The translations under genes and the position numbers were made by a program. A DNA stretch of 64,000 nt, from NCBI GenBank assembly GCA_944389545.1, contig CALXMT010000002.1, forward strand, positions 108,645 through 172,644, in the 5' to 3' direction. Source of the stretch: an uncultured Kiritimatiellota bacterium. GTDB lineage: Bacteria > Verrucomicrobiota > Kiritimatiellia > RFP12 > DVOR01. This document shows, piece by piece, positions 5,698 to 52,795 of the stretch. Each line of letters begins with the position of its first letter. Within the stretch, counting starts at the first letter, position 1. The notes under the pieces were generated by a model. That model worked only from the letters and a program-made list of their open reading frames with translations. It did not search any database and was not told the origin of the DNA.

Positions 5698-6055
5698 CTG
5701 TCCGTTAGTTTTCCGCAAAGCAATAACGCTTGGGAGAATGGGGACCGAATGGGGACCGCAAAGACGCAATAATGGGCGCGAACCGCTTCGGGCGCCATCG
5801 GTCGCTCTGCGGCTTCGCCGCTGACCGCGACCGCCGCCCTCCGTTTCGCGCCTTGAAGTAAGGAAAGTTGGGAGTAGGGTGAAGCCGCTCCATAAAAGTG
5901 AACATCTAAACTCCCTATCATCCCTTTTGAGCGCCCCTTCAGGGGCGCGATAGCGTGGAAATCCCAAGGGCGGCGCAACCAACGGGAGCGATGGAGCCCG
6001 CCGGGTTTCCAAGCCAAACCGTCTTCGGGCAAAACTTTCCTGGACACTCTTCGGT
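5698..6055. mobile_element. MITE-like non-coding repeat element copy 1 (reverse orientation relative to copy at 52462..52795; left TIR degenerate)
   Basis: ~85-90% identical over >300 bp to the reverse complement of 52462..52795. Ends carry ...GGACCGCAAAGACGCAA... and ...TTCCTGGACACTC (TIR-like). Small ORFs on it are artefacts. Confidence 0.6.
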
Positions 6056-6336
6056 CCTATTGCCTAAACAAAATCATACATTCAGTTGTCAAAGAGCAGC
6101 GCGTGAATGCTTGGTGAACGCACCACGCACCTTTGCCAAAGACCGTCATTCGTCCTCTCTAAATCAATGACAATCCTCTTGCCCAACGCAAGATACGCCA
6201 TCTTCCAGACCTGTCATTTGGTAACGAGATTTGAGGCGCACACCCTATCTCTTATCGGTCTAATAGCGTACTGCTCTACAATAGATATGCGCCATTCAAC
6301 CATTGGTGAACGGCGCACTTGCGGATGTGTTTACTG

Positions 6337-7206
6337 TCACAGCGCGGTAAAACAGTGAGACTCTAAGCAAAAGGCGTCAACATCCGATTTGAGGCTCTTG
6401 GCCGAGCAAGCGTTGTCCGTGTACAAGAAGAATGGGAGTGTTCCCTCATCTACCGTTTGCACGGGGCAAAGGTGCAACGCGGAAGCTTGCCGCTCTTTGG
6501 AAGAAGCACCAAGCGCATGGGCATTCGAGTTGGAGGGGTGAAGGTCTTTCTTCCTTCGCAACTCTTTCAGTTGGTCAGCCAAAAACGCTTGTGCGGACCC
6601 ACTCTCCATCTTACCTTCATAGAGGAAGATTTTGCGTGACCGCAATGTTCTCGCCCAGTCGCGGAAAGCTTGGGCCGTAGGCAATGCGCTCGGTTCCGCG
6701 AGCCTACCGAATCCGCGCGTGGCGCGGAGACCAAGCGCACCAACCCAAACGAAGGCTTGAACCGTCTCTTCTACTTGATCCCATAGGTTTGTCGGCACTG
6801 GGCGTACGGCTCGAATCTTGAGCGTGAACGTGCTTCCTGCGCCGATGTAATGTCCCTCTGTTGTACGGTAAACATTCTGCTTGTTGCCGGAGACCCGCGC
6901 GAAATACCCGATATAGCCCATCGGCGTGTCGTTGGGCAATGAGACAGCCCGCTGGTTGTTGACGATGTTGGTGTCTTCCACTCGCACGGCAATTGCCGAA
7001 GCGACGGCCCTAGATTCACCGTGGACACCGCCGAACAACACCTTTTCCTCTTCACGGACATCGCGATTTCCAGCCAAGACGCGGAACCACCAACGCAACG
7101 CTCCGCGGATGGAGGGCGCACGGATTTCAGGTTTGTTCTGGTCTGCCCCTGCAAGGAAGGTCGACGTGATGAAGGTCAGTTTTTTGGTGATTTCCTGTTC
7201 GTTCAT
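6337..7206 (-). CDS. cmr1: type III-B CRISPR RAMP subunit Cmr1
   Basis: 289 aa; KPEIRAPSIRGALRWWFRVLAG (Cmr1 RxxxRGxxRxW motif) and a glycine-rich loop GALGLRATRGFGRL. Last gene of the cmr operon. Confidence 0.7.
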   Translation of the reverse strand: MNEQEITKKLTFITSTFLAGADQNKPEIRAPSIRGALRWWFRVLAGNRDVREEEKVLFGGVHGESRAVASAIAVRVEDTNIVNNQRAVSLPNDTPMGYIGYFARVSGNKQNVYRTTEGHYIGAGSTFTLKIRAVRPVPTNLWDQVEETVQAFVWVGALGLRATRGFGRLAEPSALPTAQAFRDWARTLRSRKIFLYEGKMESGSAQAFLADQLKELRRKKDLHPSNSNAHALGASSKERQASALHLCPVQTVDEGTLPFFLYTDNACSAKSLKSDVDAFCLESHCFTAL

Positions 7207-8531
7207 GCTTGGCCTCCTTGCTTGGCTTTCATGGCCTCACGGATTGCCTTTTGTGCATCGCCGGGGAATCCTTTCACGCCATTGCGAATCTTGGCGTAGA
7301 CTTGCGCAGGAAGCGACCCGGCCTCCGAGAAGAGGGAGAGCATGGCTTCTCGACGTTCCGTGTTCGCCTTCAAGAATCCCTTGGCATCGTTAAGGATGCG
7401 TTTTTCGCTGTTCCAGGAGCGGCGCAGGATATCGACGGCGGATTCCTTAGGTAGGGCATTGTTGCACTTGGCTTTGAACTCGCGTAAGCGTTGGTTAATC
7501 GACTCATCTGCCTTTAAGGTTTCCGCTTCGGCCATCAGCGTTTCAGCCTGGCATTGCAGAGTGTGCGCGGTTTCGGGGGTAGGGGCCTCTTCCAAGAGCA
7601 TATTGACTGCCGTCCGGAGTGCGTCCAGACGGGCTCGGACTTGTTTGGCGGCAAGTACCTTTTCTCGCAACGCCTCGCGCTCTTGCGTGACGTTCTTGAA
7701 CCAACCGTAACCGGCGGCGGTTTTGGCGCCGGCGCCGTTCACGGTGATGGCCTCGATGAGCCACCGCTTGGCATCCGCCATGTTCGTTTCTTTGCAGTTA
7801 CGCAGGGGGACGAGAGGGAAGCAGAAGGTCACACCCGACTGGACAACAGGGAAGGCCTGGACATTGGGGTTCTCATCGTCCGTCGCTTGTGGCTTCTTTT
7901 CACCGTAATAGTCTTTGTGGTGGCAGGTGAGCACGTCGACTTCCAGATTCGCCTTGCCATCCGGGAAAGCACCCAAGAAGGCGACGCACCCGGCGTGATC
8001 TTGAACCTTTTTCCCTTCTTTCTCCCACATGGCCTTCAATTCCGCGTCCAATCCATCTTTGTCGTTGGTGGGATAGCCAAAGACCGTGGCGATGCGTTGG
8101 GCGATGGCCTTTTTCGTCTCGCCTTCTTCAGTCTTATTCCACTCGCACCAGGCTGCGTGGCGGGCGATGCCCTTCACCGCGCTCCCGGGCAGGTAGGGAT
8201 AGCCGAAGTGTGGGTGCAGGCAGATGTTCGCGTTCTCCAAGATGCCGCCGGCCAGGTTCACGGTCAGACGGCTCTGCAACTGTCCCCAGACACATTCAGC
8301 GCCTTTCGGCACGTCGTCCAAAAACGGTGTCTCCCCATACTTTTCCTGACACGCGCAGACCGCCTTCAATTCCTCCTGCTTGTTCCCACCTTCGCCGCCG
8401 ACCGTCACGAACTTCGTCAGGCGCAGCGATGGATTTTCGCATACGCGCTCGACGTCGCGCACGTTTTCCGGTGCACACCACCACGTCTTGGCCTTATCTC
8501 CCATCGCCATCCTCCTTACTGTTCTTTGCAA
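7203..8531 (-). CDS. cmr6: Cmr6 (Cas7-family RAMP) with ~150-aa C-terminal coiled-coil extension
   Basis: PYLPGSAVKGIARHAAW (Cas7 GSxxKG motif) and G-rich loop AKTAAGYGWF. C-terminal LREKVLAAKQVRARLDALRT...KAKQGGQA is extra relative to typical ~300-aa Cmr6. Confidence 0.65.
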   Translation of the reverse strand: MQRTVRRMAMGDKAKTWWCAPENVRDVERVCENPSLRLTKFVTVGGEGGNKQEELKAVCACQEKYGETPFLDDVPKGAECVWGQLQSRLTVNLAGGILENANICLHPHFGYPYLPGSAVKGIARHAAWCEWNKTEEGETKKAIAQRIATVFGYPTNDKDGLDAELKAMWEKEGKKVQDHAGCVAFLGAFPDGKANLEVDVLTCHHKDYYGEKKPQATDDENPNVQAFPVVQSGVTFCFPLVPLRNCKETNMADAKRWLIEAITVNGAGAKTAAGYGWFKNVTQEREALREKVLAAKQVRARLDALRTAVNMLLEEAPTPETAHTLQCQAETLMAEAETLKADESINQRLREFKAKCNNALPKESAVDILRRSWNSEKRILNDAKGFLKANTERREAMLSLFSEAGSLPAQVYAKIRNGVKGFPGDAQKAIREAMKAKQGGQA

Positions 8532-8904
8532 AACGGCGGAAGAAGGTCAGATAGGCCAGCACTTCTGCGGTGGTGACGCGCAACTGCATGGAGTCGGCTT
8601 TGGTCAACTCCTCGAACCACGTTGCCACATCCGTGGCTTTTCGCGCCGTCGCGTCATTGATGGCGGGGTCTTTCAAGTGGCGGAGGACGGCTTCGAAGAC
8701 TGCACGGTGTCCCTTCTTGTTGTCATCCGACAGCGCGAAGGCCATCGCGCCCAACAAGCCATGCATCACCACCATGCCGGGCACCTTCTTGGCGACGTCG
8801 CCGCCATCTTTGGCCTCAAACGTCTGGTCCTTGGACGCGGCGTAGGCGTTGAGCGCGCGGACTTGGTCGAGGCTTCTTTTGACTGCGGAGAGCGAAGCGA
8901 TCAT
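8494..8904 (-). CDS. cmr5: Cmr5 (Cas11 small subunit); start at internal MIASLS
   Basis: ~136 aa, all-helical small protein between cmr4 and cmr6. Its start abuts the cmr4 stop. Confidence 0.6.
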   Translation of the reverse strand: MIASLSAVKRSLDQVRALNAYAASKDQTFEAKDGGDVAKKVPGMVVMHGLLGAMAFALSDDNKKGHRAVFEAVLRHLKDPAINDATARKATDVATWFEELTKADSMQLRVTTAEVLAYLTFFRRFAKNSKEDGDGR

Positions 8905-9707
8905 TGCGCGTCCTCCTTGCAAGTGATGGTGCACCAACCGAGGCCCGTCGTGGCGTCTGCGCCGACTTGGAGCAGGTTATTTTCCTTCGTCAGTTGCTCT
9001 TGCAACTGCGTCAAGAGGGCGGGTTCATCGGCCATCAATTGCCCCACGAAGAGCGTTTCGGAGGGGACGTTCTCCTGCGCGAAGAGCGCACCGTTCGCGA
9101 CGGTACCGGTCGTGTCATCGATACGGTTGTGGTAGGCGATTTCGCAAGCGTTCTGCGCGAAGTGGGGCAGCACCGTGTCCGAGACCACGACCAGGCGGTT
9201 GTCCAAGGAACCCTGCCACAGCGTGTGCCCACAGAGCGGCTTCAAGGCGGCTTTCAGGTTTTCCGGCAAGTCTCCGGTGCGTTTCAGACGATACTCTTCC
9301 AACACCACATCGTTCTCAATGGCGACCAACCCTTCCGGCGCGAGCACGGCGTCTTCGCCCACTGCTGGGCAGTCAATGCCGAGCCGCGCCAAGGTCAGGG
9401 GCGAGGTCAACCACGCGAATCCACCCTTGGCCGAGCGCACGGGGAAGGCTACTAACCGAGCCTCGCCCACCAAAATCTTGCCGCGTCCGTTTTGTTCCCC
9501 AAAGAGCAAGTTTTGCGTCTGGGGATCGGTAAACAGGTCGCGCAACACGCCCTTCAGCGCAGAGCCGGGCACGGTCGGGAAGCCGGTGGCACGCTCGCGC
9601 AGGACGGGCAAGTCCACCACGCCCACAGAACTGCCACATCCCACATGGAGCGGCGTGCGCGTGAACAACGAAAAGGTCAGCGTCTTCATCTCAGTCTCCT
9701 CAATCAA
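8901..9707 (-). CDS. cmr4: Cmr4 (Cas7 backbone subunit)
   Basis: MKTLTFSLFTRTPLHVGCG...FPTVPGSALKGVLRDLF (Cmr4 signature) and G-rich loop GADATTGLGWC. Confidence 0.75.
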   Translation of the reverse strand: MIEETEMKTLTFSLFTRTPLHVGCGSSVGVVDLPVLRERATGFPTVPGSALKGVLRDLFTDPQTQNLLFGEQNGRGKILVGEARLVAFPVRSAKGGFAWLTSPLTLARLGIDCPAVGEDAVLAPEGLVAIENDVVLEEYRLKRTGDLPENLKAALKPLCGHTLWQGSLDNRLVVVSDTVLPHFAQNACEIAYHNRIDDTTGTVANGALFAQENVPSETLFVGQLMADEPALLTQLQEQLTKENNLLQVGADATTGLGWCTITCKEDAQ

Positions 9708-10845
9708 GGTGCAAATAGGAACACACGCCTAGGCCGAAACCCTTTTCGCCCAGGTCGGAACGTTGGCTCAGGTGCAGGACTTCAATCAACTTCGCAGCCT
9801 CGGCCGTGTCGGCGCATTCAAAGACGTAGCAAGCCCCTGCGGGGACGGCCAGTTCTGTGGGCTTGGCCCCATCCAGGGAGTCCCACCCTGAAAAGACCAC
9901 GGGAGTGCCGATGCGCGCGGCGATGAGGTGTGCGGAAGGGAAGGGTTTCAATTCCGCCTTGGCCCGTGCCCGCCAGGCCTTGCGCGATTCACCGGGGTGC
10001 CGCTCCACTTCGTTCATAGGAATCATTACGTGCCCGGCCTCATCGAGCCAGTTCGGATACCATCCCTTCATGAAGAGGGCCGGCGCCAAGAGCGTCCACC
10101 GCACGAACCGCGAGGGCGTTCCCTGCGGCAGAGCCTTCAAGCGCGCATCGAGGCTCGCACCTCGCACCGCGTCAAAGCGCACTGTGCCGCCCTGCCCGCC
10201 GAAACGCACGTCGTGTCCGGCCAACGTCGCGGACTTCTCCTGGCGCACATCGCACAGCATGGAGACACCCGGGGTCAACCGCAACGTCTCCATCCACCAC
10301 TGTCCGCTGAGTGCATTCTGGTCCCGCACCGACGTGTGCTTGGTGTCGTCAAGCGTTGTCCCTACGCGCGGTTCCCTGTGGTATAGTTCCGGGATTTTAG
10401 TCTCCACGCCTGCAACCGTCTCCCCGCGCAGATAACATGCGTATCCTTCGGTCGAAACCCATGCGGGGAGCGACTTCTTGCCTTCGGTGTTGTCCAGGAA
10501 ACCATGCGTCAGCGGCGCGGGCAGGTCTGTTGTCTCCTTTGTGATGGGGATTAGCTTCATGTCCCAGTCCAAAGGCCTTGGTAGGTAGAGCGTTCCCTCG
10601 CGCAGGGGGAAAGGGCCGCGAACCGCCAAGTCGGTCACGCTTCCATAGTGCTGAACCTCCGGTTTATCCGGGTCACCGAGCAACGTGTGGATGACGGCAC
10701 TGAAGAGCAGGTCCGGTCGCGGCCAATTGGCCCCGTGGCCCACCATCCGCAGGTTGGTACTTTGGCGTTTTTGGGTATCCATGGGTCGCGCGTCTCGGAA
10801 AAAGAGCACGTCCCGCGGCGTCAGTTCATAAGAGAGTGCATCCAT
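9700..10845 (-). CDS. cmr3: Cmr3 (Cas5-family subunit)
   Basis: 381 aa; N-terminal LTPRDVLFFRDARPM typical of Cmr3 and C-terminal glycine-rich loop GEKGFGLGVCSYL. Confidence 0.7.
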   Translation of the reverse strand: MDALSYELTPRDVLFFRDARPMDTQKRQSTNLRMVGHGANWPRPDLLFSAVIHTLLGDPDKPEVQHYGSVTDLAVRGPFPLREGTLYLPRPLDWDMKLIPITKETTDLPAPLTHGFLDNTEGKKSLPAWVSTEGYACYLRGETVAGVETKIPELYHREPRVGTTLDDTKHTSVRDQNALSGQWWMETLRLTPGVSMLCDVRQEKSATLAGHDVRFGGQGGTVRFDAVRGASLDARLKALPQGTPSRFVRWTLLAPALFMKGWYPNWLDEAGHVMIPMNEVERHPGESRKAWRARAKAELKPFPSAHLIAARIGTPVVFSGWDSLDGAKPTELAVPAGACYVFECADTAEAAKLIEVLHLSQRSDLGEKGFGLGVCSYLHLD

Positions 10846-12212
10846 TATTTATCCTCCCCCTGGCGCCACAGGAACGCCACACTCAGGAAAAGTCCCAGGA
10901 AGTCCTCCGCACGTGTTTTGCATTCCATCTTTAGGAAGGTTGCCAGCTTCGCCATGTCCAGCTTTCCTTTCATACCGTCCGTTCGCTCGATGGCGAAAGT
11001 CGTCTCCGCCAAGATAAGATCGGCCAAATCAGACGGCAACTCTCCTTTCAGTCCATAGGGCTGCAACAGTGCGGCCAACTTGTAGGGGAAACGCCCTGCC
11101 ACGTCCTTGCCGCATTGCGCGAAGGCATCAAAGAGGTCCAAACCGCAAGCGTCCCACGCTTCTCCATCTTGCTTGTATTTCCATTTGCTTCCCCACCATA
11201 GGATTTCACCTGACCGCTTGTGGATGGCCAGCGCCAACGCATTGCGGCCATAGGCCTCCTTTGCGCGGTGTTCCGCTTCCCGGGCGCGATTCACCAGTTC
11301 TTGCAAGGGCACGCTCTTGTGCCCGATGGCCACCCCCGCCGAGGCCGTCCCGCCGATCTGCGCGGAGAAATCTGCGGCCAACGCTTTCGCGCATGCCACA
11401 GCCAGATGCGCCGGCAACACTGCCAGCACATCGTCCCCGCCCACGTAGATGGATTGGCCTTGATAGTCTTTGATACGAGCTTCCGCCTTCGGGGCGAAGT
11501 TCAACAACAGTTCGCTGAATGCTTGGTGCTCCGCCTCGGTCTTGAAGGCACTCAAGCGCTTCCCCATTGTGTCGCCGTCCATCATGAGGACCGCCACGTA
11601 ATCGTCTTGTTTCACGGGGTCGTCAAAGGGAGCTTCTTCCGCGTGCAATCGCTTGATCAAGTTCATCGCGCCGAAGCCCAGCTTCTTGTCCAACACCGTC
11701 TCTTTGCCAGAGAGGATGTCCTTTGGATACTTGGTCGCCTCTTCCGGCCATGCGTCAAACTCGCGCGTGTTACGCCGTGCGGCCAACAATGCGCCGATGG
11801 TCTTGTAATCCTGACCCATATCGCCGGAGGGCTCCTCCAGGATTGCCCAAGAGGTTTGCGGGAAGGCCTTCACCTGCAGCAGAAAGGTCCCATCATGCGA
11901 CCACTCTGGGTGCACCTTCAATGCGCTTTCCGCCATTTCTCGCAACGCCGTTCGGAGCGCATCCGCCATCGCGCGCGCTGTTTCCGTAGCTGTTTCGCGC
12001 GGCACAAAGGCCAAGACGCGGTTCGGTAGACCAGGCCCCTCTCGTTTTGCCGGGAAGACCTCTTCGGCGCCCTCGGGCAATACCTTGAGCACTGTCTCTG
12101 TCAACTTTGACAACAAATCCGACCCCGCCCACAAATCTTGCGCGGTCTCGGCCTGTGCGATGAATCCCTGCACAGGCCCAAACTGAAAAAGCAACAACGC
12201 CTTGTCCTTCAC
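10845..12212 (-). CDS. cas10: Cas10/Cmr2, minimal form lacking HD domain, with intact GGDD cyclase palm (GTG start)
   Basis: 455 aa; LLLFQFGPVQGFIAQA (Cas10 post-HD motif), AVLMMDGDTMGKRL (palm metal-binding D) and IYVGGDDVLAVLP (GGDD). No H-HD-H-D motifs. Confidence 0.7.
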   Translation of the reverse strand: MKDKALLLFQFGPVQGFIAQAETAQDLWAGSDLLSKLTETVLKVLPEGAEEVFPAKREGPGLPNRVLAFVPRETATETARAMADALRTALREMAESALKVHPEWSHDGTFLLQVKAFPQTSWAILEEPSGDMGQDYKTIGALLAARRNTREFDAWPEEATKYPKDILSGKETVLDKKLGFGAMNLIKRLHAEEAPFDDPVKQDDYVAVLMMDGDTMGKRLSAFKTEAEHQAFSELLLNFAPKAEARIKDYQGQSIYVGGDDVLAVLPAHLAVACAKALAADFSAQIGGTASAGVAIGHKSVPLQELVNRAREAEHRAKEAYGRNALALAIHKRSGEILWWGSKWKYKQDGEAWDACGLDLFDAFAQCGKDVAGRFPYKLAALLQPYGLKGELPSDLADLILAETTFAIERTDGMKGKLDMAKLATFLKMECKTRAEDFLGLFLSVAFLWRQGEDK

Positions 12213-12225
12213 GGCAAGCCTCCTC

Positions 12226-12684
12226 TCAAATCCGTTTCATCCACCTCAGACGCAACACGTGCCACCCTGTGATTGCCGACGGCGCCGCCGCCTGGCCCGG
12301 GGCCGGTCGGCCTCCCCCTGCCACATCCGGCGACAACACATAACATTCCGCGAAGCATTCCCCGTCCAATTCCGGCAATCCCTCCGCGTTCAACCGCAAT
12401 GCCGGGCGCGGCACCCGCGGCTTCAACGTTCCCGCCGACACCCCCAGAAAGGCCTCCGCCGCACCCTGCGTCTCCGCGTGTCCCCAGAACGACCGAACCA
12501 CCGCCCCAGACGCCAACGCCTCCCGCAAGGTCTCCACCCTTATTTCCTCGATCTCCACACGCCACCCCCGCACCAACGTCAACGGGAAGGTATTTCCAAT
12601 CAACAACGTCCCACTCACGCCTTCGCCTCCCACTTTCCTGGCCTCCAGTTCCGGATGGCCTGGACGACATAATCGTTTGGGCAT
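12226..12684 (-). CDS. hypothetical protein (152 aa) between card1 and cas10; coding status uncertain
   Basis: ATG-initiated ORF in a locally GC-rich 400-bp gap. Overlaps the card1 3' end by ~70 nt and has no recognisable motif. Several alternative frames are also open. Confidence 0.3.
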   Translation of the reverse strand: MPKRLCRPGHPELEARKVGGEGVSGTLLIGNTFPLTLVRGWRVEIEEIRVETLREALASGAVVRSFWGHAETQGAAEAFLGVSAGTLKPRVPRPALRLNAEGLPELDGECFAECYVLSPDVAGGGRPAPGQAAAPSAITGWHVLRLRWMKRI

Positions 12685-13811
12685 GGCATCGGTAACTCTA
12701 GCAACATCAAATTACCGGCATCTTCGATTCGGGTCAATAGGTTTTGATAATCGGTCTCTACGTTTCCTTTGGTGTGCCCCAAGTTCTTGGAGGATGTCAC
12801 CAAGATTCCGCGTCCAAATGTACCACCATACTCATCAACAATATCACTGAATCGCTGAATTTGCTCGGAACTCACATACCCAGACTTACACTCTACAAGG
12901 TAAAGGCAGAATCCATCCGTGAATGAAACGTCAAATTCTTGCCTAGGCACACTTGTATCCTCAAAGGAGATACTTGCACCCCGTTGAAAATCATAACATC
13001 CTGGCAACCGTTTCACTTGACAGAGTACGTATGTCTCCAACCAAAGCCCTGTCACAAAACGGCAGGTCTCGATATCCCCTTTTGTCTGGCGCACGTTACT
13101 CAACAATCTCACACACCGCTCCGTTGCGGCACGGTCACGTGTTTTGTCCAAGAAATGTTTGGCTAAAGCGTCCAAATCTCCAGATAATACAGACTTAGCA
13201 TATTTTTGCATATCGCCTAGATGGTCGCTCATCTTACCGATATAACCACGGAATCCCCATCGATGTGCGCAAAGGGCACCTGCCAATTCCTCTTCTTCTT
13301 GAGAAACACCCCACTCGCCTGGGACGAAGATATCGGAAGAGCAGAGGCGCACGAATTGTTCTACGGTGGAGAATCCGCGTCTCAGATGCACTTCGCGGTC
13401 TCCACCCACATCAAGTACCCTGCGCGACTGTGTGTCTACATAAAAACACGATAATCCCGTCCAAGCATTAACTAAAGACAATGCCATCAGCTTGGTTCCG
13501 CCCGTGACGTTCGCGGCCACGGATTGCCCCTTATACTCCTCGTGTAGAGCAACAAAATCTTCTCGTAGACGCCGTTGGTTATACGAATCCACCAACTTAA
13601 TCGCTATCGGCATTTCGGCAGTGGCAAACACTGACACTAATCGTTTCGCGACCACCTCTGTCTTTTCTGTTGCCAATAAGATATGCGTTTTGGCCGGAAC
13701 ATTCAGAATGGCGAATGCCACCGGTAATTCCTGTTCGCCAATCAAATGCAATACGACATCAAACACAGACAGATTCTCTCCAAGCTTACTCATCGATCGC
13801 TCCTTGCTCAT
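12615..13811 (-). CDS. can2: CARF-domain + PD-(D/E)xK nuclease, Card1/Can2-like cyclic-oligoadenylate-activated effector
   Basis: ~398 aa; N-terminal Rossmann-like CARF with VTGGTKLMALSLVN. C-terminal EFDVSFTDGFCLYLVECKSG supplies the D...ExK catalytic triad. First gene of the cas operon next to the array. Confidence 0.65.
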   Translation of the reverse strand: MSKERSMSKLGENLSVFDVVLHLIGEQELPVAFAILNVPAKTHILLATEKTEVVAKRLVSVFATAEMPIAIKLVDSYNQRRLREDFVALHEEYKGQSVAANVTGGTKLMALSLVNAWTGLSCFYVDTQSRRVLDVGGDREVHLRRGFSTVEQFVRLCSSDIFVPGEWGVSQEEEELAGALCAHRWGFRGYIGKMSDHLGDMQKYAKSVLSGDLDALAKHFLDKTRDRAATERCVRLLSNVRQTKGDIETCRFVTGLWLETYVLCQVKRLPGCYDFQRGASISFEDTSVPRQEFDVSFTDGFCLYLVECKSGYVSSEQIQRFSDIVDEYGGTFGRGILVTSSKNLGHTKGNVETDYQNLLTRIEDAGNLMLLELPMPCPNDYVVQAIRNWRPGKWEAKA

Positions 13812-13847
13812 CAAACATCGTTAATCCTACCCCAAACTCCCAAAAAA

Positions 13848-16394: not shown

Positions 16395-16620
16395 TATATC
16401 AAAAAATCGGGTTGATTGCATGGGGGTTATTTGGCGATTTGCGCGAACCTCTGGGGAAAAGGGAGATTTTGTTTGGGATGGGCAGGCGTATTTTTTTTGG
16501 AAGGGAGAGACAACTTCTTCTGTGATAAGCAATTCTTATGTTTGTGCGGCGTGCGCGAACCTCCCAGGGTTTGAAGGGGGGTGATGGGTTCGCGCAGGGA
16601 AGGGGCGGAGAGGCCTTTTA
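16395..16620 (-). promoter_or_regulatory. CRISPR leader with internal GCGCGAACC(T)C repeats
   Basis: AT-rich start (TATATCAAAAAATCGGG...) and three copies of GCGCGAACCyC in direct or inverted orientation. Adjacent to the youngest repeat. Confidence 0.45.
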
Positions 16621-16631
16621 GAAGGGGTGTT

Positions 16632-16768
16632 GGCGGACCACTATAGGGTCTCGGTGTGGACCCCTATAAGGGTTGACCGCGGACCCCTATAAGGGTTGGC
16701 CGCGGACCACTATAGGGTCTCATCTGCGACCACTATAGGGGTCGGGGCGGACCCTTATAGGGTCTGAA
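16632..16768. repeat. iteron cluster A: six tandem ~22-bp units with near-palindromic core GACCACTATAGGGTC / GGACCCCTATAAGGGTTG, preceded by AGGGGTGTTGG
   Basis: Read directly from the sequence; cognate cluster at 47262..47400. Confidence 0.8.
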
Positions 16769-16782
16769 GGGCGGCTGGCGCC

Positions 16783-17031: not shown

Positions 17032-17047
17032 TTTGCGGGTGCAAAAA

Positions 17048-17092
17048 AAAGGCCCCCGGGGGGCCGGGGGCTTTTTGGGGAGTGAGGGGTGG
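17048..17092 (-). terminator. Rho-independent terminator of glgP (GC hairpin GGCCCCCGGGGGGCCGGGGGC flanked by A/T runs, bidirectional)
   Basis: Perfect GC stem directly after the glgP stop codon, with an A8 run on one side and a T5 run on the other. Confidence 0.7.
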
Positions 17093-17095
17093 GCC

Positions 17096-22524: not shown

Positions 22525-22621
22525 ATTGCCTATAATTTTAGCAAAACCGCATGCCATTCGGCAAAACTTTTAGTGCATTTCCAATCGTCTCCGGGGAATT
22601 TCCACAAAGACGATTTGGGCG

Positions 22622-22860: not shown

Positions 22861-22863
22861 ATT

Positions 22864-22895
22864 CATCCCTAGGGGCACGCGTGCCCTTAGGGATG
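22864..22895 (-). terminator. hairpin CCCTAGGGGCACGCGTGCCCTTAGGG downstream of second sigma gene
   Basis: Imperfect palindrome directly after the stop codon at 22913. Confidence 0.5.
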
Positions 22896-39875: not shown

Positions 39876-40117
39876 AATTACTCACCATTTTAGCAAACCA
39901 TGCCGCCTTCGTGCCCGTTGCTTTTTTGTAAGCAATAGTATCCGGGGAAATCGACAAGCCTCCTTTTCCCGCAAAAACGCCAATGTGCGCGAAGCCAGAT
40001 GGGCTAACGCCGGTCGCTTTGCGGGCTAAACGCCCGCTGATCGCACCCTCCCGCCCATCGTCTTCGCGCTTGGGCCGTCTTAAGAAGTCCTTTTGGCGCA
40101 GGGAAGTGGGGCGCGGG

Positions 40118-40140
40118 AGGGCGCACGACCGTGCGCCCGG
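40118..40140 (-). terminator. hairpin GGGCGCACG-ACC-GTGCGCCC after arginase-family gene
   Basis: Perfect 9-bp GC stem; a solo MITE TIR lies at 40168-40206 between it and the arginase-family gene stop at 40239. Confidence 0.5.
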
Positions 40141-40238
40141 CGTTAGCGCCCCACTTTTCCTGCAAGATTTGCGTCTTTGCGGTCTCCATTTTCCCCGGAC
40201 ATATTGTTTTGTAAACGAGCGTCACTTGCTGGACGCGC

Positions 40239-46011: not shown

Positions 46012-46014
46012 CCC

Positions 46015-46416: not shown

Positions 46417-46423
46417 GGCACCC

Positions 46424-47158: not shown

Positions 47159-47184
47159 CATAGGAGTATATGACCCCTTTGTGG

Positions 47185-47213
47185 CACGCCTCGTGGCGTG
47201 CCTTTTTTATGTT
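47185..47213 (+). terminator. yggS terminator (GGCACGCCTCGTGGCGTGCC + T-run)
   Basis: Perfect hairpin followed by TTTTTTAT. Confidence 0.7.
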
Positions 47214-47261
47214 TACTTACGCGACGCCTCTGCCCTGGAAAAGGGGTGTTGGAGAAACCCT

Positions 47262-47400
47262 TAAGGGTCCGAGGTGAGACCCTATAGTGGTCGGGGTCGA
47301 GACCCTATAGTGGTCGGGGTCGAGACCCTATAGTGGTCCATGGTCGACCCCTATAGTGGTCCAGAACGAACCCTTAAGGGGTCCGCAACAGACCCCTTGC
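47262..47400. repeat. iteron cluster B: six tandem ~22-bp units (core GACCCTATAGTGGTC, flanking AACCCTTAAGGGGTCC), preceded by AGGGGTGTTGG
   Basis: Cognate of the cluster at 16632-16768; followed 12 bp later by a solo MITE TIR at 47412-47455. Confidence 0.8.
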
Positions 47401-47499
47401 TCTCGTACAAACCAATAGTGTCCGGGGAAAAAGAGATGGACCGCAAAGACGCAACTCTTGCAGGAAGATGAGGCGTCATTGAATCTTCTAAGTTTCTTG

Positions 47500-47640
47500 T
47501 GCGCCTGGGGTTGTTTCCAAAGAAATGATGGAAACACAAGGGAAGGGCACGGTAGAGAGGCCGTAAGGCCGAACGGTGAAGTGCCCAGGCCCTTGTGTTC
47601 CTTTCGTGTTTTCGTGGAAACATCCTCGGACAGTGTTGGC
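47500..47640 (+). ncRNA. candidate structured RNA / cis-regulatory leader upstream of PNPOx/Nim gene
   Basis: Nested helices are visible: GTTTCCA..TGGAAAC, ACAAGGG....CCCTTGT enclosing GGGCAC..GTGCCC and a GGCC-GUAA-GGCC tetraloop hairpin, then GTTCC..GGAAC. Lies in the untranslated gap before 47702. Confidence 0.3.
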
Positions 47641-47701
47641 CTAGCAGTGTGATAAAATAGGGCCAAAGCTCTAGACGGGACTTTTGAGTGAGGACGCGAC
47701 C

Positions 47702-48184
47702 ATGAGAAGAAAAGAACGTGAAGTGACAGATCTCAACGAGATTAAGGATATTCTGACACGGGCCGAGGTTCTCCGGGTCGCCTTGAACAACGGCGACTAT
47801 CCCTATCTCTTCCCGGTGAACTACGGATTTGTCATGGATGGCGCACAGTTGGTGCTCTTCTTTCATGGGGCGAAGGAGGGTGCCAAACACGCCATTATCG
47901 CGCGGGACAACAAGGTCACCTTTGAGGTCGATTGCGGCCATGCGCTGATGCAACCGCTCGGCGAGGAATCCTGCACTAGCAGTTTCGCCTATGAAAGCGT
48001 CATCGGAACCGGCACGATTGAAAAGGCCGCGGACTCAGAAAAAGAAGCCTTACTGCCCCTGTTGCTGGAACATTATGGAATCACGGCAAAGCATTTCAAT
48101 CCCGTACATCTGGCCAATACGGTCGTCTACAAAATCACGGCAACGACCTACACGGCCAAGCGCAGAGTCAACGACCGACTCTGA
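47702..48184 (+). CDS. pyridoxamine 5'-phosphate oxidase-family FMN-binding protein (Nim-like); start at MRRKEREV
   Basis: ILTRAEVLRVALNNGDYPYLFPVNYGF and the split-barrel PNPOx pattern. Confidence 0.7.
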   Translation: MRRKEREVTDLNEIKDILTRAEVLRVALNNGDYPYLFPVNYGFVMDGAQLVLFFHGAKEGAKHAIIARDNKVTFEVDCGHALMQPLGEESCTSSFAYESVIGTGTIEKAADSEKEALLPLLLEHYGITAKHFNPVHLANTVVYKITATTYTAKRRVNDRL

Positions 48185-48512: not shown

Positions 48513-49661
48513 TTGGTGTCACTGATGAAGAAGTCGCAATCACGGAGGACGCATCGAGGTAAAGTGGCCTCGTTGTTGCTTCGTGTCGTGCTTGTCATCT
48601 TTGCTTTGTGTGCAACGATAACGCTCTATCTTGTACATGACGAGACGATGCGTGAACGCCGCAATGCACCCCAGCGGGAAGTCGAGGTGCACGAATTGTT
48701 GCAGGTTCGTGAGGGAGGTGTTTTTCCACCACGGGTACAGGACCAACCTTGTCTGCGGACAAGTGATGGTGAGATTGTGCATTGGGAGGCTTCATTGGGA
48801 GAGTTGGCGGAGTTTTGCCGCCAGGGATTGCCCTTTAGGATGAACGTGTATGAGATGTATGGAGGGCTGTATTATTATTCTTCTTATGCAGCCAGAGGGT
48901 GGTTGATTTTCTCGATGTCCTTGTTTCTTTTCTCTTTACACATTCTGTTTTGGCCTGTCAAACGGTCGAAAGTGGAACCCGTCGCTTGTATATCCAAGCG
49001 GGGAGCTTCCATTGGCATGGCCGTTACGGACAAGATAACGTTTGACCTGTCTCAACACGAGCGTCGTCGCCGTATTGTGTTCCAAGTAGTGATTCAGGGT
49101 GCCTTTGCCGTCCTCTTCGTCGGGTGGATGACGTATGCATGGGGATGGTCTTGGTTATTGTTGGCGGTAGCGCTTCCGGTTTTACTGAGCACGGCGCTTG
49201 TTTGTTGGCCAGACGCTCTCGTCCGTTTCATAGGTGGGGCGTTACTCCTATGCGTTCCCTTTTTGGCAGAGGCTTTCGGACACGGTTTGTATTGGCGGGA
49301 AACGACGCGTATTGAAGCAATTCCGCGATATGTGCGCTACGACATGAGCCATTCTGCCGACAAAAAGCATGGGGCGCCTGAGGAGGTTTACGAAGTGCTC
49401 TTCAGCTATGATTGGGCGGGAAGAGAACGTTATGGGTTTATACGCCTTCGCTCAAATCAAGCCGCAGAATGTGCTTTGATCCGTCAGTTGAGAGGGGGTC
49501 ACCTTCAATTGTTGCGTGATCAGTCGCCTGAGGGTCGCTTTTTTGCCTTTGACGCGGCTTGGGCCATCAGCCAACTTGTCAGTGGGGCGGGCGCGCTCTT
49601 TTGCTTCTTGTGCGGAGGTGCCATGCTCTTGCTGGGGCAGAAGAAGCGGAGGACCGAATGA
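48513..49661 (+). CDS. hypothetical polytopic membrane protein (low-GC island)
   Basis: 382 aa with at least 5 TM segments and no recognisable motif. Local GC is ~42-50% versus ~67% background. Confidence 0.45.
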   Translation: MVSLMKKSQSRRTHRGKVASLLLRVVLVIFALCATITLYLVHDETMRERRNAPQREVEVHELLQVREGGVFPPRVQDQPCLRTSDGEIVHWEASLGELAEFCRQGLPFRMNVYEMYGGLYYYSSYAARGWLIFSMSLFLFSLHILFWPVKRSKVEPVACISKRGASIGMAVTDKITFDLSQHERRRRIVFQVVIQGAFAVLFVGWMTYAWGWSWLLLAVALPVLLSTALVCWPDALVRFIGGALLLCVPFLAEAFGHGLYWRETTRIEAIPRYVRYDMSHSADKKHGAPEEVYEVLFSYDWAGRERYGFIRLRSNQAAECALIRQLRGGHLQLLRDQSPEGRFFAFDAAWAISQLVSGAGALFCFLCGGAMLLLGQKKRRTE

Positions 49662-49893
49662 GACGGAACGCGCGGAACCAGAACATTGCCATCGCCCCCT
49701 TCGGCGCTGTCATCCGTATCCTTCAGGCATTTGAGAGGGTACACCAATGATGTACGTAAAAGAACTTGCCCCAAAAGAGTGGACGCTTCGATTCTGGTTG
49801 CATGGGCCACTGGCAACCCTTCGGGAGTGGAGGCATGAACGGGTCGAGTAGCATGGAAGACCGCAAAGATGGGTTTATGAGTGGAAGGACTAC

Positions 49894-50376
49894 TTGTTCA
49901 ACCTTATCGCAGGACTTCCTATTTTCCTGCTAGGATGTGGTCTATTCTATTATCATGCCTGTGTGGAAGAGAGTATCGCGGTTGGCGTTGTGGTGGCTGC
50001 TATCCCTTTTTGCGGAGGGGCGTGGATGGTTCTGGCTCCTCTTCGCTCTTGGCTTGGGCATTTCGCCCTTCATTATTATCTGACGCCATCAACAATCCTT
50101 GTCGTTTTCAGGTTTCTCTTCTTCAGCGTTTCCCTGTCCGCCCCAAAGCAAAGGATTGGCTTTGTTCTGATTGATCGGTATGAGGAGGTGGCCGTCATCA
50201 AGTTCGCGAATCTTTCGTTTACCCCCGTTGATAGACTTGATGATATCACCGTAGAACTGAAGTTTTATGGGTTGACCTTGTCTGATTGCCTGGCGTTGCG
50301 GTCTTATTTCAGCGGTAAGGCGTTTTATGTCTCCGGTGAGCATCCGGATGAGTATAAGGCGTACCGCGGCGGTTGA
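49894..50376 (+). CDS. hypothetical membrane-anchored protein (low-GC island)
   Basis: 160 aa with two N-terminal TM helices then a small soluble domain. Confidence 0.4.
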   Translation: MFNLIAGLPIFLLGCGLFYYHACVEESIAVGVVVAAIPFCGGAWMVLAPLRSWLGHFALHYYLTPSTILVVFRFLFFSVSLSAPKQRIGFVLIDRYEEVAVIKFANLSFTPVDRLDDITVELKFYGLTLSDCLALRSYFSGKAFYVSGEHPDEYKAYRGG

Positions 50377-50500
50377 CAAGTGTTGGTGAGCGGTGTATCC
50401 TATGAAACATGAGGATGATGTCTATGGGAACCGCATCAAGACGGCGACCTTCTTGGATAAGGAAGGGAATGGGACATCGTGGTTGAATAAGTGAGGCGGA

Positions 50501-51718
50501 GTGGCTTTCATGAGATTCGTGATTTTATTGCTTGGGTTTTGTTTGACTGGCTTGTCTTGGGCCTCGTGTGTGCAATTCATATGGATTGATGAAGACGGCA
50601 ATGAGGTAGAGCTCCCTATTGGGCCAACGTTTTATGAACGCTTTTCAAGAGGGATGGATAGAGAAACTGTCGCTCAAGCCCTGAATGAAGGGTGTCCCAG
50701 ACGAACACGAGAAATCTCGTTCGAGGAGGCATGTGCGGAGTTTTTCGACCTGAGGCAATCGGTTCCTTTTCTATTTAGGGAAGGGCGCACTGTCACGGCC
50801 TATCAAGAAATCCCTGTAGAGAATCAGCGTGGCGGCTCCTTGCCGCAGAGCGATGTGGATGAGGAGCAATTTTACTTCTTTATATTTGATGAACAGGGGC
50901 AACTGACAGATGCGGTTGAAGTACCGCAGAACAGAGGGGAACCGCTCTTCTTCATAGAGGGCGAATTTGTCGATGAACTATTATCCCTCAAGCAAGGCGA
51001 GGAATCAGAGGCGGTGTTTGCGAGATTCGGGACCCGTCGGCCAATCCAGCATTTGCAAACGCAAGATGGGCGATGGTATGTTATCTATAACTATGAGTGT
51101 GTCGCAAATGGGCGACGCGGGGTCTTTTGCAGGGTATGGATTGGTGGCGGTACGGGGCGAGTGGAGTATGTCGAAGGAGGAATGCTAGGTCGAAAATGGA
51201 CCGGTGGGCAATCTGACGCGAAAGATGTGGAGGCCATTTTGCAGGAAGCCATCCGTGAATGTGAGAGGAAATCAGGAGGTCAGTGGAAGGAATCCTTAGA
51301 CACTGTGCGGTTACGATTGGTTTTATCCCGTTACCGGAGTGAGTCAGGCAAGGTCTCCGCGGATGACGAGAGAGGGCTTTGCCAACAGGTTGAACGCATA
51401 CTGGTCAAGGAAAGCAAAGACGCTGCGAGCGATGCCGCAAGTGGTTTCGGGAGTGATTTGGTCGCGGCGCGTCTGCGCGAGAGACTGACGCGGTTTAGGT
51501 GCGAAGAAAGCCAGACGCTTTATTCGCTTTTCCCCGGTGACACGGTTGATTTGTCGCCTTTGTTGTGGGAACATCGGCGTGCGGCGGAAGCGCTTGTCAA
51601 ACTGTCGTATCAAGCGTATCAAGCCGGGACGATAGACGAACGAGAGTTCATAGATGCGCTCTTATTGTTGAACCCTCCTTCTCCCCGTATCGTTCCGGAG
51701 ACAGAGGATACATTATAG
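50501..51718 (+). CDS. hypothetical secreted/lipoprotein (low-GC island)
   Basis: 405 aa; signal peptide MAFMRFVILLLGFCLTGLSWASC (possible lipobox) and an acidic domain with no known motif. Confidence 0.45.
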   Translation: MAFMRFVILLLGFCLTGLSWASCVQFIWIDEDGNEVELPIGPTFYERFSRGMDRETVAQALNEGCPRRTREISFEEACAEFFDLRQSVPFLFREGRTVTAYQEIPVENQRGGSLPQSDVDEEQFYFFIFDEQGQLTDAVEVPQNRGEPLFFIEGEFVDELLSLKQGEESEAVFARFGTRRPIQHLQTQDGRWYVIYNYECVANGRRGVFCRVWIGGGTGRVEYVEGGMLGRKWTGGQSDAKDVEAILQEAIRECERKSGGQWKESLDTVRLRLVLSRYRSESGKVSADDERGLCQQVERILVKESKDAASDAASGFGSDLVAARLRERLTRFRCEESQTLYSLFPGDTVDLSPLLWEHRRAAEALVKLSYQAYQAGTIDEREFIDALLLLNPPSPRIVPETEDTL

Positions 51719-51883
51719 TCAGAAGAAGCAACGAACATGTCTATGCTGACACGTTTTGGAGTTTCGTCAAATCGCGCAATGATACGGTCGCCTCGCAGTA
51801 CAACGATATGAACAATCTGCTCGGCCACCCTGTGTGGATGTGCTAAAGCAAGGGTGATGGGATAACCAAGGAGGAGCGGTGAT

Positions 51884-52354
51884 ATGCACGTTTACCTCAA
51901 GTATGGGTTTGTGCTTTTCCCTACAGAGCAGATGAAGTTGACGAGATTGTCGAGCGAAGGTGTTTATTTGTACAGTGGTTGCATCTTATCCCATCTGTTT
52001 GGAAACGCTCGGGGTCGGTCATGGGTTGTATTTTCACGTAATCGTGTACGTCTTCATGGTGTGACACCGTTCAATAGCGGGAGCATGGATTACTGTTTTT
52101 CCAAAAGGGAGATTCGATCCATCTATACAAACGATTCGCCCTCCGTTCCTTTCTTGGGGACGGGCTATGGGCTCGATTCGAGGCCTCCGTTTCTGACAAG
52201 AATGTATTATTTTTATACCGCTCCAGCGCTCAGATATCGATGGCCTATGCGGTACAGGTTTCTGATCATCGAGATGGTATCCTTCTATATCCTCATGTTT
52301 GTCGAGTCTGAACGTGAAGTGCGTCTATATCAAGAGCAGCTCAAAAAACGATAA
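51884..52354 (+). CDS. hypothetical protein (low-GC island)
   Basis: 156 aa, Tyr/Arg-rich, C-terminal hydrophobic helix. Confidence 0.35.
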   Translation: MHVYLKYGFVLFPTEQMKLTRLSSEGVYLYSGCILSHLFGNARGRSWVVFSRNRVRLHGVTPFNSGSMDYCFSKREIRSIYTNDSPSVPFLGTGYGLDSRPPFLTRMYYFYTAPALRYRWPMRYRFLIIEMVSFYILMFVESEREVRLYQEQLKKR

Positions 52355-52461
52355 AGATTCTCTTAAATGGCAATCTCGCAGATTGTTTGTCCTTGGTGAA
52401 GAATGCGGTTGTCAAATAACCGCACTTCCCTTGCTCTTTGACAATGGCATCGTGTTTGTGG

Positions 52462-52795
52462 CAATAGTGTCCGGGGAAGTTTTACCGCGAAAACGGTCTT
52501 GCGTGGAAACCCTGCGGGCTCCATCGCTCCCGTTGGTCGCGCCGCCCTTGGGGTTTCCACGCTATCGCGCCCCTGAAGGGGCGCTCAAAAGGGGAATGAG
52601 GAAGTTTGGAAGCTTGGAAGTTCAGCTTTTACGGTGGGGCTTCGCCTCACATCCTCTACATTCCTTACTTCAAGGCGCGAAACGGAGGGCGGCGGTCGCG
52701 GTCAGCGGCGAAGCCGCAGAGCGACCGATGGAGCCCGAAGCGGTTCGCGCCAATTGTTGCGTCTTTGCGGTTCCCATTTTCCCCGGACAGTATTG
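52462..52795. mobile_element. MITE-like non-coding element copy 2, complete, with ~38-bp terminal inverted repeats CAATAGTGTCCGGGGAAnnTTTnCCGCGAAAACGG... / ...TTGCGTCTTTGCGGTTCCCATTTTCCCCGGACAGTATTG
   Basis: TIRs read directly from the sequence. The interior matches 5698-6055 (reverse complement), and fragments or solo TIRs occur at 22745-22860, 26115-26262, 40168-40206 and 47412-47455. No ORF of transposase size. Confidence 0.7.

Follow-up and report, generated by a model that had tools for sequence, protein, structure and literature searches.

The repeats at the edges of two accessory islands in the window (the whole 64-kb stretch of DNA analysed here) probably represent dispersed intergenic families that occupy operon-end spacers, rather than borders or mobilisers of the islands. 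They are not a specific signature of island insertion, since two unrelated families, a MITE and a tandem array of 23-bp units, fill most of the long gene-free spacers in this lineage. Neither family delimits or mobilises the islands, and the island borders are operon-end spacers in which gene order already differs between lineages. In the long intergenic spacers of this uncultured Kiritimatiellaeota-like chromosome, several families of dispersed repeats would combine into mosaics, and two of these families happen to lie at the edges of the two accessory segments.

Two accessory islands and their edges

Island 1 is the CRISPR-Cas island of the initial annotation, in which a type III-B Cmr locus is accompanied by a Card1-like gene and a CRISPR array of 37 repeats. 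The type III-B genes (6337..13814, minus strand), identified by Pfam, NCBIfam and PADLOC matches, comprise cmr1, cmr6, cmr5, a RAMP gene, cmr3, cas10/cmr2, a 152-aa unknown ORF and a Card1-like CARF nuclease. The CRISPR array (13860..16395, minus strand) holds ~37 repeats of 36-37 nt at a ~70-bp period; the repeat terminates in GGTTGCGAC, and degenerate repeats are found at the 13.9-kb end. Judging from the repeat sequence, the CRISPR array is probably transcribed from the minus strand, with the leader at ~16396-16630. One edge of the island is occupied by MITE copy 1 (5698..6055), located between dnaB and the cmr operon, a copy with an intact right TIR (6036-6050) and a degenerate left one. 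At the other edge lies iteron-like array A (16622..16771, plus strand; tandem part 16632-16768), with six 23-bp units, the core GGACC(A/C)CTATA(A)GGGT(C/T), and a degenerate flank containing AGGGGTGTTGG. Array A is positioned between the CRISPR leader and repeat modules downstream of the glgP intrinsic terminator (17042..17071, minus strand). Two such modules, a hairpin-containing run of the heptamer (GAGAACR)n (16769-16846) and a second dispersed module (16869-16946), recur in a related MAG, and homology with relatives stops at the glgP stop codon, position 17095.

Island 2 is a low-GC segment, as originally described (0.49-0.55 versus about 0.63-0.65 nearby), and the entire segment is missing in sister species. 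It carries a Pyridox_ox_2 family gene (47684..48184, plus strand, from a family search), for which the label Nim-like holds at the superfamily level only (35 bits versus the NimABCDEF cut-off of 260), and four low-GC orphan ORFs of 382, 160, 405 and 156 aa (48513..52354, plus strand). The four ORFs had no match in Pfam, PADLOC and NCBIfam searches, and are found in at least two strains of the species. Upstream, homology with the sister species stops at 47159, followed by the intrinsic terminator of the topA-thioesterase-yggS operon (47183..47210, plus strand) and iteron-like array B (47239..47400, minus strand; 6-7 units, tandem part 47262-47400), which is opposite in orientation to array A. 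Both arrays are found directly past the terminator of a core operon. The far end of island 2 is occupied by MITE copy 2 (52462..52795).

The initial annotation had proposed that each island is bracketed by one MITE and one iteron cluster. All of the sequences are present at the coordinates given, but the pattern is not complete and arises largely because repeats are so abundant. For instance, the stretch 47412-47455, which had been taken for a solo MITE TIR, forms the left end of a short but complete MITE of ~230 bp (47412..47642), so that island 2 has MITEs on both sides. Roughly 9 of the 11 window spacers longer than 140 bp carry repeat modules common to the related genome, and the post-hoc chance of the border arrangement, given 2 arrays and ~6 MITE-bearing spacers of ~11, is roughly 0.02-0.07, which is no convincing evidence of an association.

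Nor do the islands resemble integrative genomic islands, for which an integrase gene, insertion at a tRNA or tmRNA and direct att repeats on either side would be expected. Domain searches revealed no integrase or recombinase domain in island 1 or island 2; no tRNA or tmRNA is present within the 64-kb window, and no known RNA family was found. Matching att repeats are absent from the borders of either island, the two borders of which hold different elements. The strain comparison, also suggested by the initial annotation, revealed differences in units (array B) and interior sequence (MITE copy 2).

The 23-bp arrays are a dispersed intergenic family

The two iteron clusters are 23-bp-period tandem arrays, as first described. 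With at most one mismatch allowed, the window has 14 occurrences of the core motif ACCMCTATARGG, all of them inside arrays A and B (0.17 expected by chance). A scan of species-representative genomes identified 35 array loci, of which 34 belong to a single related MAG (CALXOF01) and one to another Kiritimatiellaeota MAG, and at least 36 arrays lie on contigs of the related MAG totalling 1.64 Mb. The genome-wide statements made here on arrays come from the sister species, with ~87% identical DNA across the conserved blocks compared (88% in glgP). The family is confined to a few close Kiritimatiellaeota species, and plasmid, phage and viral collections gave no array match.

Each array consists of 3-8 direct 23-bp units in a single orientation, and each unit combines a variable spacer of ~5 nt with an 18-nt core, (G/C)GACC(A/C)CTATAGGGTCTC, that is conserved and near-palindromic but slightly asymmetric. 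In a logo from 151 units the core is conserved and the spacer near-random, suggesting that the cores are kept by a sequence-specific DNA-binding protein, which could be a transposase, a recombinase or a host protein. Arrays A and B belong to a lineage-specific dispersed repeat. Single strands of the arrays fold well into hairpins (z = -4.5 to -6.3).

Different arrays have unit order and flanks in common, and the same terminal two-unit block is found at many loci, which is suggestive of spread as multi-unit modules; homology between arrays is limited to the array and 10-30 nt on each side. In the case of the 11-mer AGGGGTGTTGG, which precedes both window arrays (at 16623 and 47242) as the initial annotation had noticed, another copy is found at L027 of the related MAG and none at the 36 remaining array sites in the catalogue of loci L002-L036. 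The 11-mer is the flank of an array subfamily. Arrays also gain and lose units locally, in keeping with replication slippage, as evidenced by a 97.7%-identical strain in which array B is short by exactly one 23-bp unit, and by an array with five identical units that shows recent amplification. Since no filled-versus-empty site pair was found for any array, we infer their mobility rather than observe it.

The arrays are all intergenic. All four gene-orientation configurations occur, and array orientation follows no fixed rule with respect to neighbouring genes or GC skew. A terminator is found within 80 bp of 16 of 39 arrays, and arrays may mostly lodge in untranscribed spacer, often directly past an intrinsic terminator. 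Most of the adjoining genes (about 85-88%) have housekeeping functions and a normal GC content, including pgi, pfl, pckG, rpoB, tpiA, groEL, a tRNA synthetase gene and rpsG. Windows of 1 kb with GC below 0.56 make up 13% of those adjoining arrays, 9% of all windows of those loci and 14% of this window.

This distribution can also be read as that of protein-binding arrays with a host function, for example for a nucleoid-associated, insulator or roadblock protein, that are placed at transcription-unit ends and are not selfish. The strongly conserved cores with near-random spacers, the constant 23-bp phasing, the frequent placement directly past terminators and the retention of position between strains all fit such a role. 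However, the arrays are missing at the corresponding sister-species junctions, vary in copy number, obey no orientation rule and are confined to a few close species, and no candidate protein is known, making a host function possible but rather unlikely.

Comparison with known repeat systems

The arrays share features with several known systems. Like BOX of Streptococcus pneumoniae and MIRU-VNTR of Mycobacterium, they occupy dozens of intergenic loci per genome (at least 36 here), are modular, their internal tandem units differing in number, vary in copy number between strains (by one unit at array B), form stable single-strand hairpins and have no coding capacity. They differ in the length of the unit (23 bp, whereas boxB measures 45 bp and MIRU 46-100 bp), in its near-palindromic core with a variable 5-nt spacer, and in their restriction to a few species. 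Like the RAYT-associated REP/BIME elements of Proteobacteria, they are clusters of short near-palindromic units that are extragenic and multi-copy, often past terminators, species-specific in sequence and nested with other mobile elements. Unlike alternating inverted REPs, the array units are direct repeats at a fixed 23-bp phase, and no RAYT/Y1 transposase is found among the 25 most frequent families listed for each of two gene sets, the 68 flanking genes and the 122 nearby ones.

Plasmid iterons (RK2, F, R6K and pSC101) are similar in that their clusters hold 3-7 direct repeats of 17-22 nt, one every 22-23 bp, in which a short spacer of variable sequence accompanies a conserved core. The window arrays, by contrast, have no adjacent rep gene, being flanked by glgP and the CRISPR array and by yggS and Pyridox_ox_2, respectively. 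They also belong to a family of at least 36 chromosomal loci, versus one or two per replicon, with no plasmid or phage relatives found, and a plasmid-type iteron origin was rejected. Neisseria NIMEs with dRS3 repeats, which are linked to rearrangement and insertion, offer a parallel for spacers in which several short repeat families form a mosaic beside variable genes, although here there is no evidence of a phage or recombinase targeting the repeats, and the sequences are unrelated.

Accessory genes beside arrays

The arrays are not neutral toward their neighbours, and accessory and defence genes, notably DUF1703 nuclease-ATPase paralogs, show a modest enrichment directly beside them. By hand classification of family tables, a small-sample and post-hoc measure, accessory or defence-like genes account for ~12% of the immediate array neighbours in the fetched loci, versus ~2.5% of genes at least one position further out. 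Those beside arrays are DUF1703, a Type ISP restriction enzyme, SNF2/ResIII and cas genes, the latter at locus L028 of another MAG (CALXMW), where the array sits inside a type I-C cas operon. A cas4-cas1 spacer likewise adjoins an array. DUF1703 paralogs adjoin 5 of ~37 arrays, and five out of six copies within the sampled loci lie against an array (p about 0.01). In addition, the junction downstream of coaB holds different cargo and an array in two species, and three of three arrays tested fall at gene-order breaks.

Such observations would be expected if arrays, possibly with a DUF1703 ATPase-nuclease as partner, mark or create sites at which accessory and defence genes are inserted or exchanged. 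Against this stands the preponderance of housekeeping genes among array neighbours, and the presence of an array at only one border of each island. Moreover, gene-order boundaries after yggS and after glgP are found in three lineages, and relatives have spacers of 70-223 bp without an array at these junctions. The DUF1703 genes are found on either side of the array at varying distance, with no DNA common to gene and array, and the enrichments are small-sample and post hoc. A role of arrays as hotspots is doubtful; of the hotspot signature envisaged by the initial annotation, little survives beyond the accessory enrichment beside arrays, and a signature specific to the islands does not.

The MITE inserts copy by copy

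The MITE is a true non-autonomous transposon that inserts copy by copy into spacers. It is small (230-355 bp), non-coding and multi-copy, with a TIR of about CAATAGTGTCCGGGGAA and 8-9-bp target duplications. At least five TIR-bearing copies are present in the 64 kb, where a 3-mismatch search returned nine TIR matches versus 1.08 expected, with inverted ATAGTGTCCGGGGAA-type pairs at 22584/22862, 39935/40205 and 52464/52793. The first pair delimits a copy (22582..22864; TIRs at 22584 (+) and 22862 (-)) that separates two rpoD paralogs. A fragment of the internal module (26137..26243) is 89% complementary to 5747-5853. The 275-bp copy at 39932..40206 is surrounded by an 8-bp target duplication, TTTTGTAA (39924-39931 and 40207-40214), whereas the orthologous spacer of the sister species (locus L047) has a single TTTTGTAA and no MITE, and thus represents the empty site. 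Together, the target duplications and this empty site show that the MITE transposes on its own.

The remaining copies adjoin the islands. The left TIR of MITE 47412..47642 is an exact ATAGTGTCCGGGGAA match, whereas the right TIR is degenerate; the TIR at 47415 pairs with this more degenerate end at ~47640, which falls outside the 3-mismatch search. Its internal module recurs ~10 times in loci of the related MAG, three of these copies being 10-30 nt or less from an array. MITE copy 2 is inverted relative to copy 1, as initially annotated, with arms that are 86-96% complementary, and has its own 9-bp target duplication, TGTTTGTGG (52453-52461 and 52796-52804). The interior of copy 2 varies between strains, one lacking 161 bp and another 72 bp. 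Several contigs break at 52653, inside copy 2, and contigs from other samples break within copy 1 (5698..6055).

Because copies have common ends and different internal modules, the family is a mosaic. This sets it apart from bacterial MITEs such as Correia elements, RUP and Nezha, which it otherwise resembles in length, terminal inverted repeats, 8-9-bp target duplications, multiple copies in spacers and insertions that are polymorphic between species. In the related MAG, 20 TIR-like matches were found in 264 kb versus 4 in shuffled sequence, and the MITE frequency is about one per 8-13 kb. No transposase adjoins a TIR in the fetched loci, and an exact TIR scan of JGI metagenomes gave no match.

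The arrangement of island 2, with same-family MITEs (47412-47642 and 52462-52795) inverted and with like ends inward around a 4.7-kb low-GC cargo, and the absence of the whole segment from sister species, are reminiscent of a composite transposon in which the two MITEs jointly moved the Pyridox_ox_2 gene and the orphan ORFs. However, MITE copy 2 has a perfect 9-bp duplication on both its sides, and hence inserted alone, and the outer flanks of the pair, ...CGTACAAAC and TGTTTGTGG..., do not form a direct repeat, as a single target duplication outside the pair would. Flanking pairs are moreover expected by chance given the frequency of the MITE, and joint movement is very unlikely. Nor is there support for the insertion, mobilisation or recombination mechanism that the initial annotation had proposed to be shared by both islands. 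The two border families are unrelated and behave independently, with MITE copy 2 carrying its own target duplication, the copy at 39932-40206 a simple insertion and the arrays scattered through the related MAG, mostly beside housekeeping genes; integrase, tRNA and att repeats are lacking, as is a duplication outside both MITEs of island 2.

A single large Tn7- or Mu-like element with the mutually inverted arrays A and B as its ends is hardly credible, as is the notion that these arrays are remnants of plasmid origins: clusters of 4-7 direct repeats of ~18 nt, one every 23 bp, do recall the Tn7 right end and plasmid iterons, but the 30 kb between A and B holds only housekeeping genes (glgP, two rpoD, metK, dxr, cdsA, topA and yggS) with no transposition or rep genes, which led to rejection of Tn7- or Mu-like ends, and such arrays number at least 36 per genome, with no match in plasmid, phage or viral collections.

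Implications for accessory DNA in this lineage

Under the preferred reading of dispersed families in operon-end spacers, the simplest explanation would be that accessory genes, MITEs and arrays all accumulate in spacers that are permissive. A bolder proposal, and an improbable one on present data, is that the 23-bp arrays are both recognition platforms for a lineage-specific protein, and landing pads for accessory genes. The best candidate for the protein would be the multi-copy DUF1703 AAA-ATPase/PD-(D/E)XK nuclease, as its paralogs are found beside arrays much more frequently than expected. If so, defence cassettes, DUF1703 genes and MITEs would be preferentially inserted or exchanged beside arrays, and the two islands of the window would exemplify a hotspot system guided by repeats.

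Organisation of the window and its repeats

The window is chromosomal DNA of ~62-65% GC in which the majority of genes lie on the minus strand. As read from Pfam matches, bamA and dnaB precede the spacer holding MITE copy 1 (5698-6055), which is followed by island 1, a type III-B cmr operon with a Card1-like nuclease gene (6337-13814) and a CRISPR array of ~37 repeats (13860-16395). A leader, array A (a 23-bp iteron-like cluster near 16632-16768) and two other repeat modules separate the CRISPR array from glgP, and then come an RRM protein gene, two rpoD paralogs, metK, an amidohydrolase gene, dxr, cdsA, an arginase-family gene, a nucleoside phosphorylase-superfamily gene, topA, a thioesterase gene and yggS. 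Array B (near 47262-47400) and a short MITE occupy the spacer between yggS and a Pyridox_ox_2 gene, which together with four low-GC orphan ORFs makes up island 2, and MITE copy 2 (52462-52795) lies between these ORFs and coaB, panD and a gene for a tricorn-like protease. The orphan ORFs have no match in Pfam, PADLOC or NCBIfam, and an exact look-up of the window's DnaB returned no record.

Several features of the layout are recorded here for their own sake. Within the window, the type III-B locus (6337-16395) is accompanied by neither cas1 nor cas2 nor cas6, and an unassigned 152-aa ORF (12226-12684) separates cas10 from the Card1-like gene. The stretch from MITE copy 1 to the 3' end of the cmr operon contains a ~110-nt module (6113-6223, beginning ATTCAGTTGTCAAAGAGC) that recurs at three loci in a related MAG, CALXOF01. 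The tandem rpoD paralogs (20049-22469 and 22913-24580) share 84-88% DNA identity over ~1.5 kb and are separated by a spacer that holds a MITE (22582-22864); only one rpoD is found at the corresponding place in relatives whose glgP is 94% and 89% identical.

All elements listed in the initial annotation, which held that each island is bracketed by one MITE-like element and one iteron cluster, are present. The two MITE-like copies are mutually inverted, with arms 86-96% complementary, and both clusters have a 23-bp period, with all 14 occurrences of the iteron core (at most 1 mismatch) falling inside the two arrays (0.17 expected by chance). The bracketing scheme is nevertheless incomplete, as island 2 is flanked by a MITE at either end. 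The sequence at 47412-47455, previously taken for a solo terminal inverted repeat (TIR), belongs to a complete MITE of ~230 bp (47412-47642) as its left end, since the TIR at 47415 has a partner at ~47640, a more degenerate right end that fell outside a TIR search allowing 3 mismatches.

A transposing MITE family

The TIR search with ATAGTGTCCGGGGAA gave 9 matches in the window, relative to 1.08 expected, including inverted pairs at 22584/22862, 39935/40205 and 52464/52793 and the right end of MITE copy 1; the end sequence is of the type CAATAGTGTCCGGGGAA. A perfect 9-bp target duplication, TGTTTGTGG, surrounds MITE copy 2, and the copy at 39932-40206 has the duplication TTTTGTAA on either side. 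In a sister species that is collinear with the window over 36160-47159 at ~87% identity, TTTTGTAA occurs just once at the position of the latter copy and the element is absent, leaving a clean empty site. The MITE transposes independently, with target duplications. The interior of MITE copy 2 is unstable within the species, one strain being short of 161 bp and another of 72 bp, and numerous metagenome contigs break off at 52653 or within MITE copy 1. A scan of JGI metagenomes with the TIR pattern gave 0 matches.

The window has roughly one TIR-like end every 8 kb and the related MAG one every 13 kb. At this density, finding a MITE in the long spacer at an island's edge is what one should expect. 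Of the window spacers exceeding 140 bp, about 9 of 11 proved to contain repeat modules in a comparison with 264 kb of the related genome. As several repeat families are represented in most long spacers, bracketing by chance is to be expected, and the architecture seen around the two islands is largely coincidental, though the sequences themselves are real. Another such dispersed family, found in the related MAG too, consists of GAGAACR heptamer runs beside GC-rich hairpins (16783-16828, 22631-22676, 26007-26102, 33057-33102 and 53494-53539), and resembles the cyanobacterial STRR repeats.

Distribution and structure of the arrays

When one genome for each of 185,579 species was scanned with two adjacent cores as the query, 35 array loci were found, 34 in the Kiritimatiellaeota MAG CALXOF01 and one in another MAG of the phylum. 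CALXOF01 is a close relative of the window genome (95% DNA identity in coaB, ~87-88% in longer conserved blocks), and with second arrays at some loci counted its contigs, 1.64 Mb in total, carry 36 arrays or more, a spacing of about one per 45 kb. In JGI metagenomes, matches to the array pattern were limited to simple repeats and to unrelated two-unit repeats of low GC, with no true relatives among them, and a literature search on the core sequence and on Kiritimatiellaeota intergenic repeats returned nothing relevant.

The arrays are dispersed and all intergenic, with flanking genes in all four orientations, and are often directly 3' of terminators. An intrinsic terminator lies within 80 bp of 16 of 39 arrays; array B, for instance, begins 30 nt past the yggS terminator, whereas array A is ~270 nt past that of glgP, with two other repeat modules intervening. 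Array orientation shows no link with GC skew, and its agreement with the majority gene strand (24 of 36 arrays co-oriented) is not significant.

Within one array all units run in the same direction. A logo of 151 units gives an 18-nt core, (G/C)GACC(A/C)CTATAGGGTCTC, with 1-2 bits per position, and a spacer of ~5 nt between cores that is near-random. This conservation of cores amid near-random spacers is suggestive of maintenance by a putative sequence-specific protein. Many arrays have one unit order in common, in which a CTTAAG-type unit comes first, at least one standard unit follows and the block GACCACTATAG(T/G)G(G/A)TTGACCTC-GGACCACTATAGGGTCTC comes last. Because this unit order and terminal block are shared, the arrays would appear to spread as multi-unit modules. 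Homology between arrays ends within 10-30 nt of the array edge.

Unit number changes. In a strain 97.7% identical to the window, array B is shorter by exactly one 23-bp unit. Between two strains (window 47100-47720 and locus L038), the 620-nt spacer is 100% identical except for one 23-bp unit, while the flanking DNA differs by ~2.4%; the identity of the spacer may reflect recent recombination or a sweep. An array in the related MAG (L003:966-1143) has five units identical even in their spacers, which, judged from the sequence, indicates very recent local amplification.

The arrays are apparently an undescribed variant of dispersed intergenic tandem repeats, similar to BOX, MIRU and REP elements in genomic behaviour and to plasmid iterons in form. 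The commonest unit (16636-16765, 47280-47361) includes CACTATAGGG, which in the T7 class III promoter spans positions -7 to +3. That promoter is as long as the array period, 23 bp, but differs at positions -11 to -8; the match is probably a coincidence. A role as promoters was rejected, as there is neither a bias towards downstream genes nor a sigma-70-like site. Arrays A and B were rejected as the ends of a 30-kb Tn7/Mu-like element, since housekeeping genes lie in between. No array relatives were found in viral contigs or in phage and plasmid records, and a phage, plasmid or viral origin was rejected on that ground.

Island borders as gene-order boundaries

The island borders are gene-order boundaries with or without an array. 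For instance, what comes after the topA-thioesterase-yggS block is hcp in one relative and a nucleotidyltransferase gene in another, across spacers of 70 and 95 bp that hold no array, and the rpoD-RRM-glgP block is followed in relatives by rnhB or a GH97 gene. In the sister species an array lies between a GH31 gene and prmA, where a third species has a 50-bp deoC-prmA spacer. Models of simple insertion were rejected for island 1 (into a dnaB-glgP junction) and for island 2 (into a yggS-coaB junction), as relatives have other neighbours there and thus offer no clean empty site.

For a shared mechanism of island mobilisation, as proposed from the bracketing, there is no evidence. The hallmarks of integrative or composite elements are absent: the islands have no integrase, tRNA or matching border repeats, and no target duplication was found outside the MITE pair of island 2. 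The 11-mer AGGGGTGTTGG does precede both arrays, but only one array in the related MAG shares that flank, making it a subfamily mark rather than an island mark. A known RNA family or tRNA target at the borders was rejected, with 0 tRNA genes across the window and no Rfam family, borders included, reaching the gathering threshold. All 22 contigs carrying an identical Cmr1 protein have the Cmr island in the same context, with no alternative among them.

Arrays and accessory genes

The proposal that the repeats mark a hotspot for accessory DNA fared somewhat better. At genome scale in the related MAG, the dispersed arrays are mostly not tied to accessory DNA. The 68 array-flanking genes are mostly housekeeping (pgi, pfl, pckG, rpoB, tpiA, groEL, a tRNA synthetase gene and rpsG, for instance), gene order breaks at junctions without arrays too, and 1-kb windows with GC below 0.56 make up 13% of those next to arrays, 9% of all in the same loci and 14% in the window. 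Genes touching arrays are nonetheless modestly enriched for accessory types. In the sampled loci, 5 of 6 copies of DUF1703 (AAA-ATPase_like + PDDEXK_9), a family of unknown function with lineage-specific expansions (PMC6387759), touch an array, against ~2/7 expected (p ~0.01). A Type ISP restriction enzyme gene (1604 aa) and two SNF2/ResIII genes also adjoin arrays, whereas the 122 non-adjacent genes of the same loci include almost none of the DUF1703, Type ISP, SNF2/ResIII or cas families. The DUF1703 paralogs of CALXOF01 (L010, L013, L032, L033 and L036, also L031) have a mutual identity of 55-77%; the five by arrays lie on either side of the array and have no DNA in common beyond gene and array.

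In a second MAG, CALXMW01, a type I-C operon has an array between its cas4 and cas1 genes (L028:1658-1776). Its five units have the variant core GACCCCTATAAGGGTCC and fill the 131-bp cas4-cas1 spacer, and since the array fills a spacer inside the operon it is probably co-transcribed with it.

Beyond coaB, the two species each have an array, and their cargo differs. The related MAG (L033:886-8000) carries a Type ISP restriction enzyme gene, the array and a DUF1703 gene, and the window (47159-52834) carries the orphan ORFs and the Pyridox_ox_2 gene between two MITEs, followed by the array. Given one array per ~45 kb, the probability that both species have an array here by coincidence is estimated at about 0.2. 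Our reading is that accessory genes and repeats co-accumulate in permissive spacers; the same facts underlie the improbable alternative that arrays act as landing pads for accessory genes.

Implications

Repeats at island borders are easily mistaken for att sites or transposon ends, a reading that mostly fails here. With a target duplication and an empty site, the MITE family is well defined, and contig breaks inside repeats limit metagenome assembly of this lineage. The array family belongs to the little-studied Kiritimatiellaeota; its copy number varies between strains, so that it might serve for strain typing in metagenomes, and its link with DUF1703 nuclease-ATPase paralogs and defence genes provides a testable lead.
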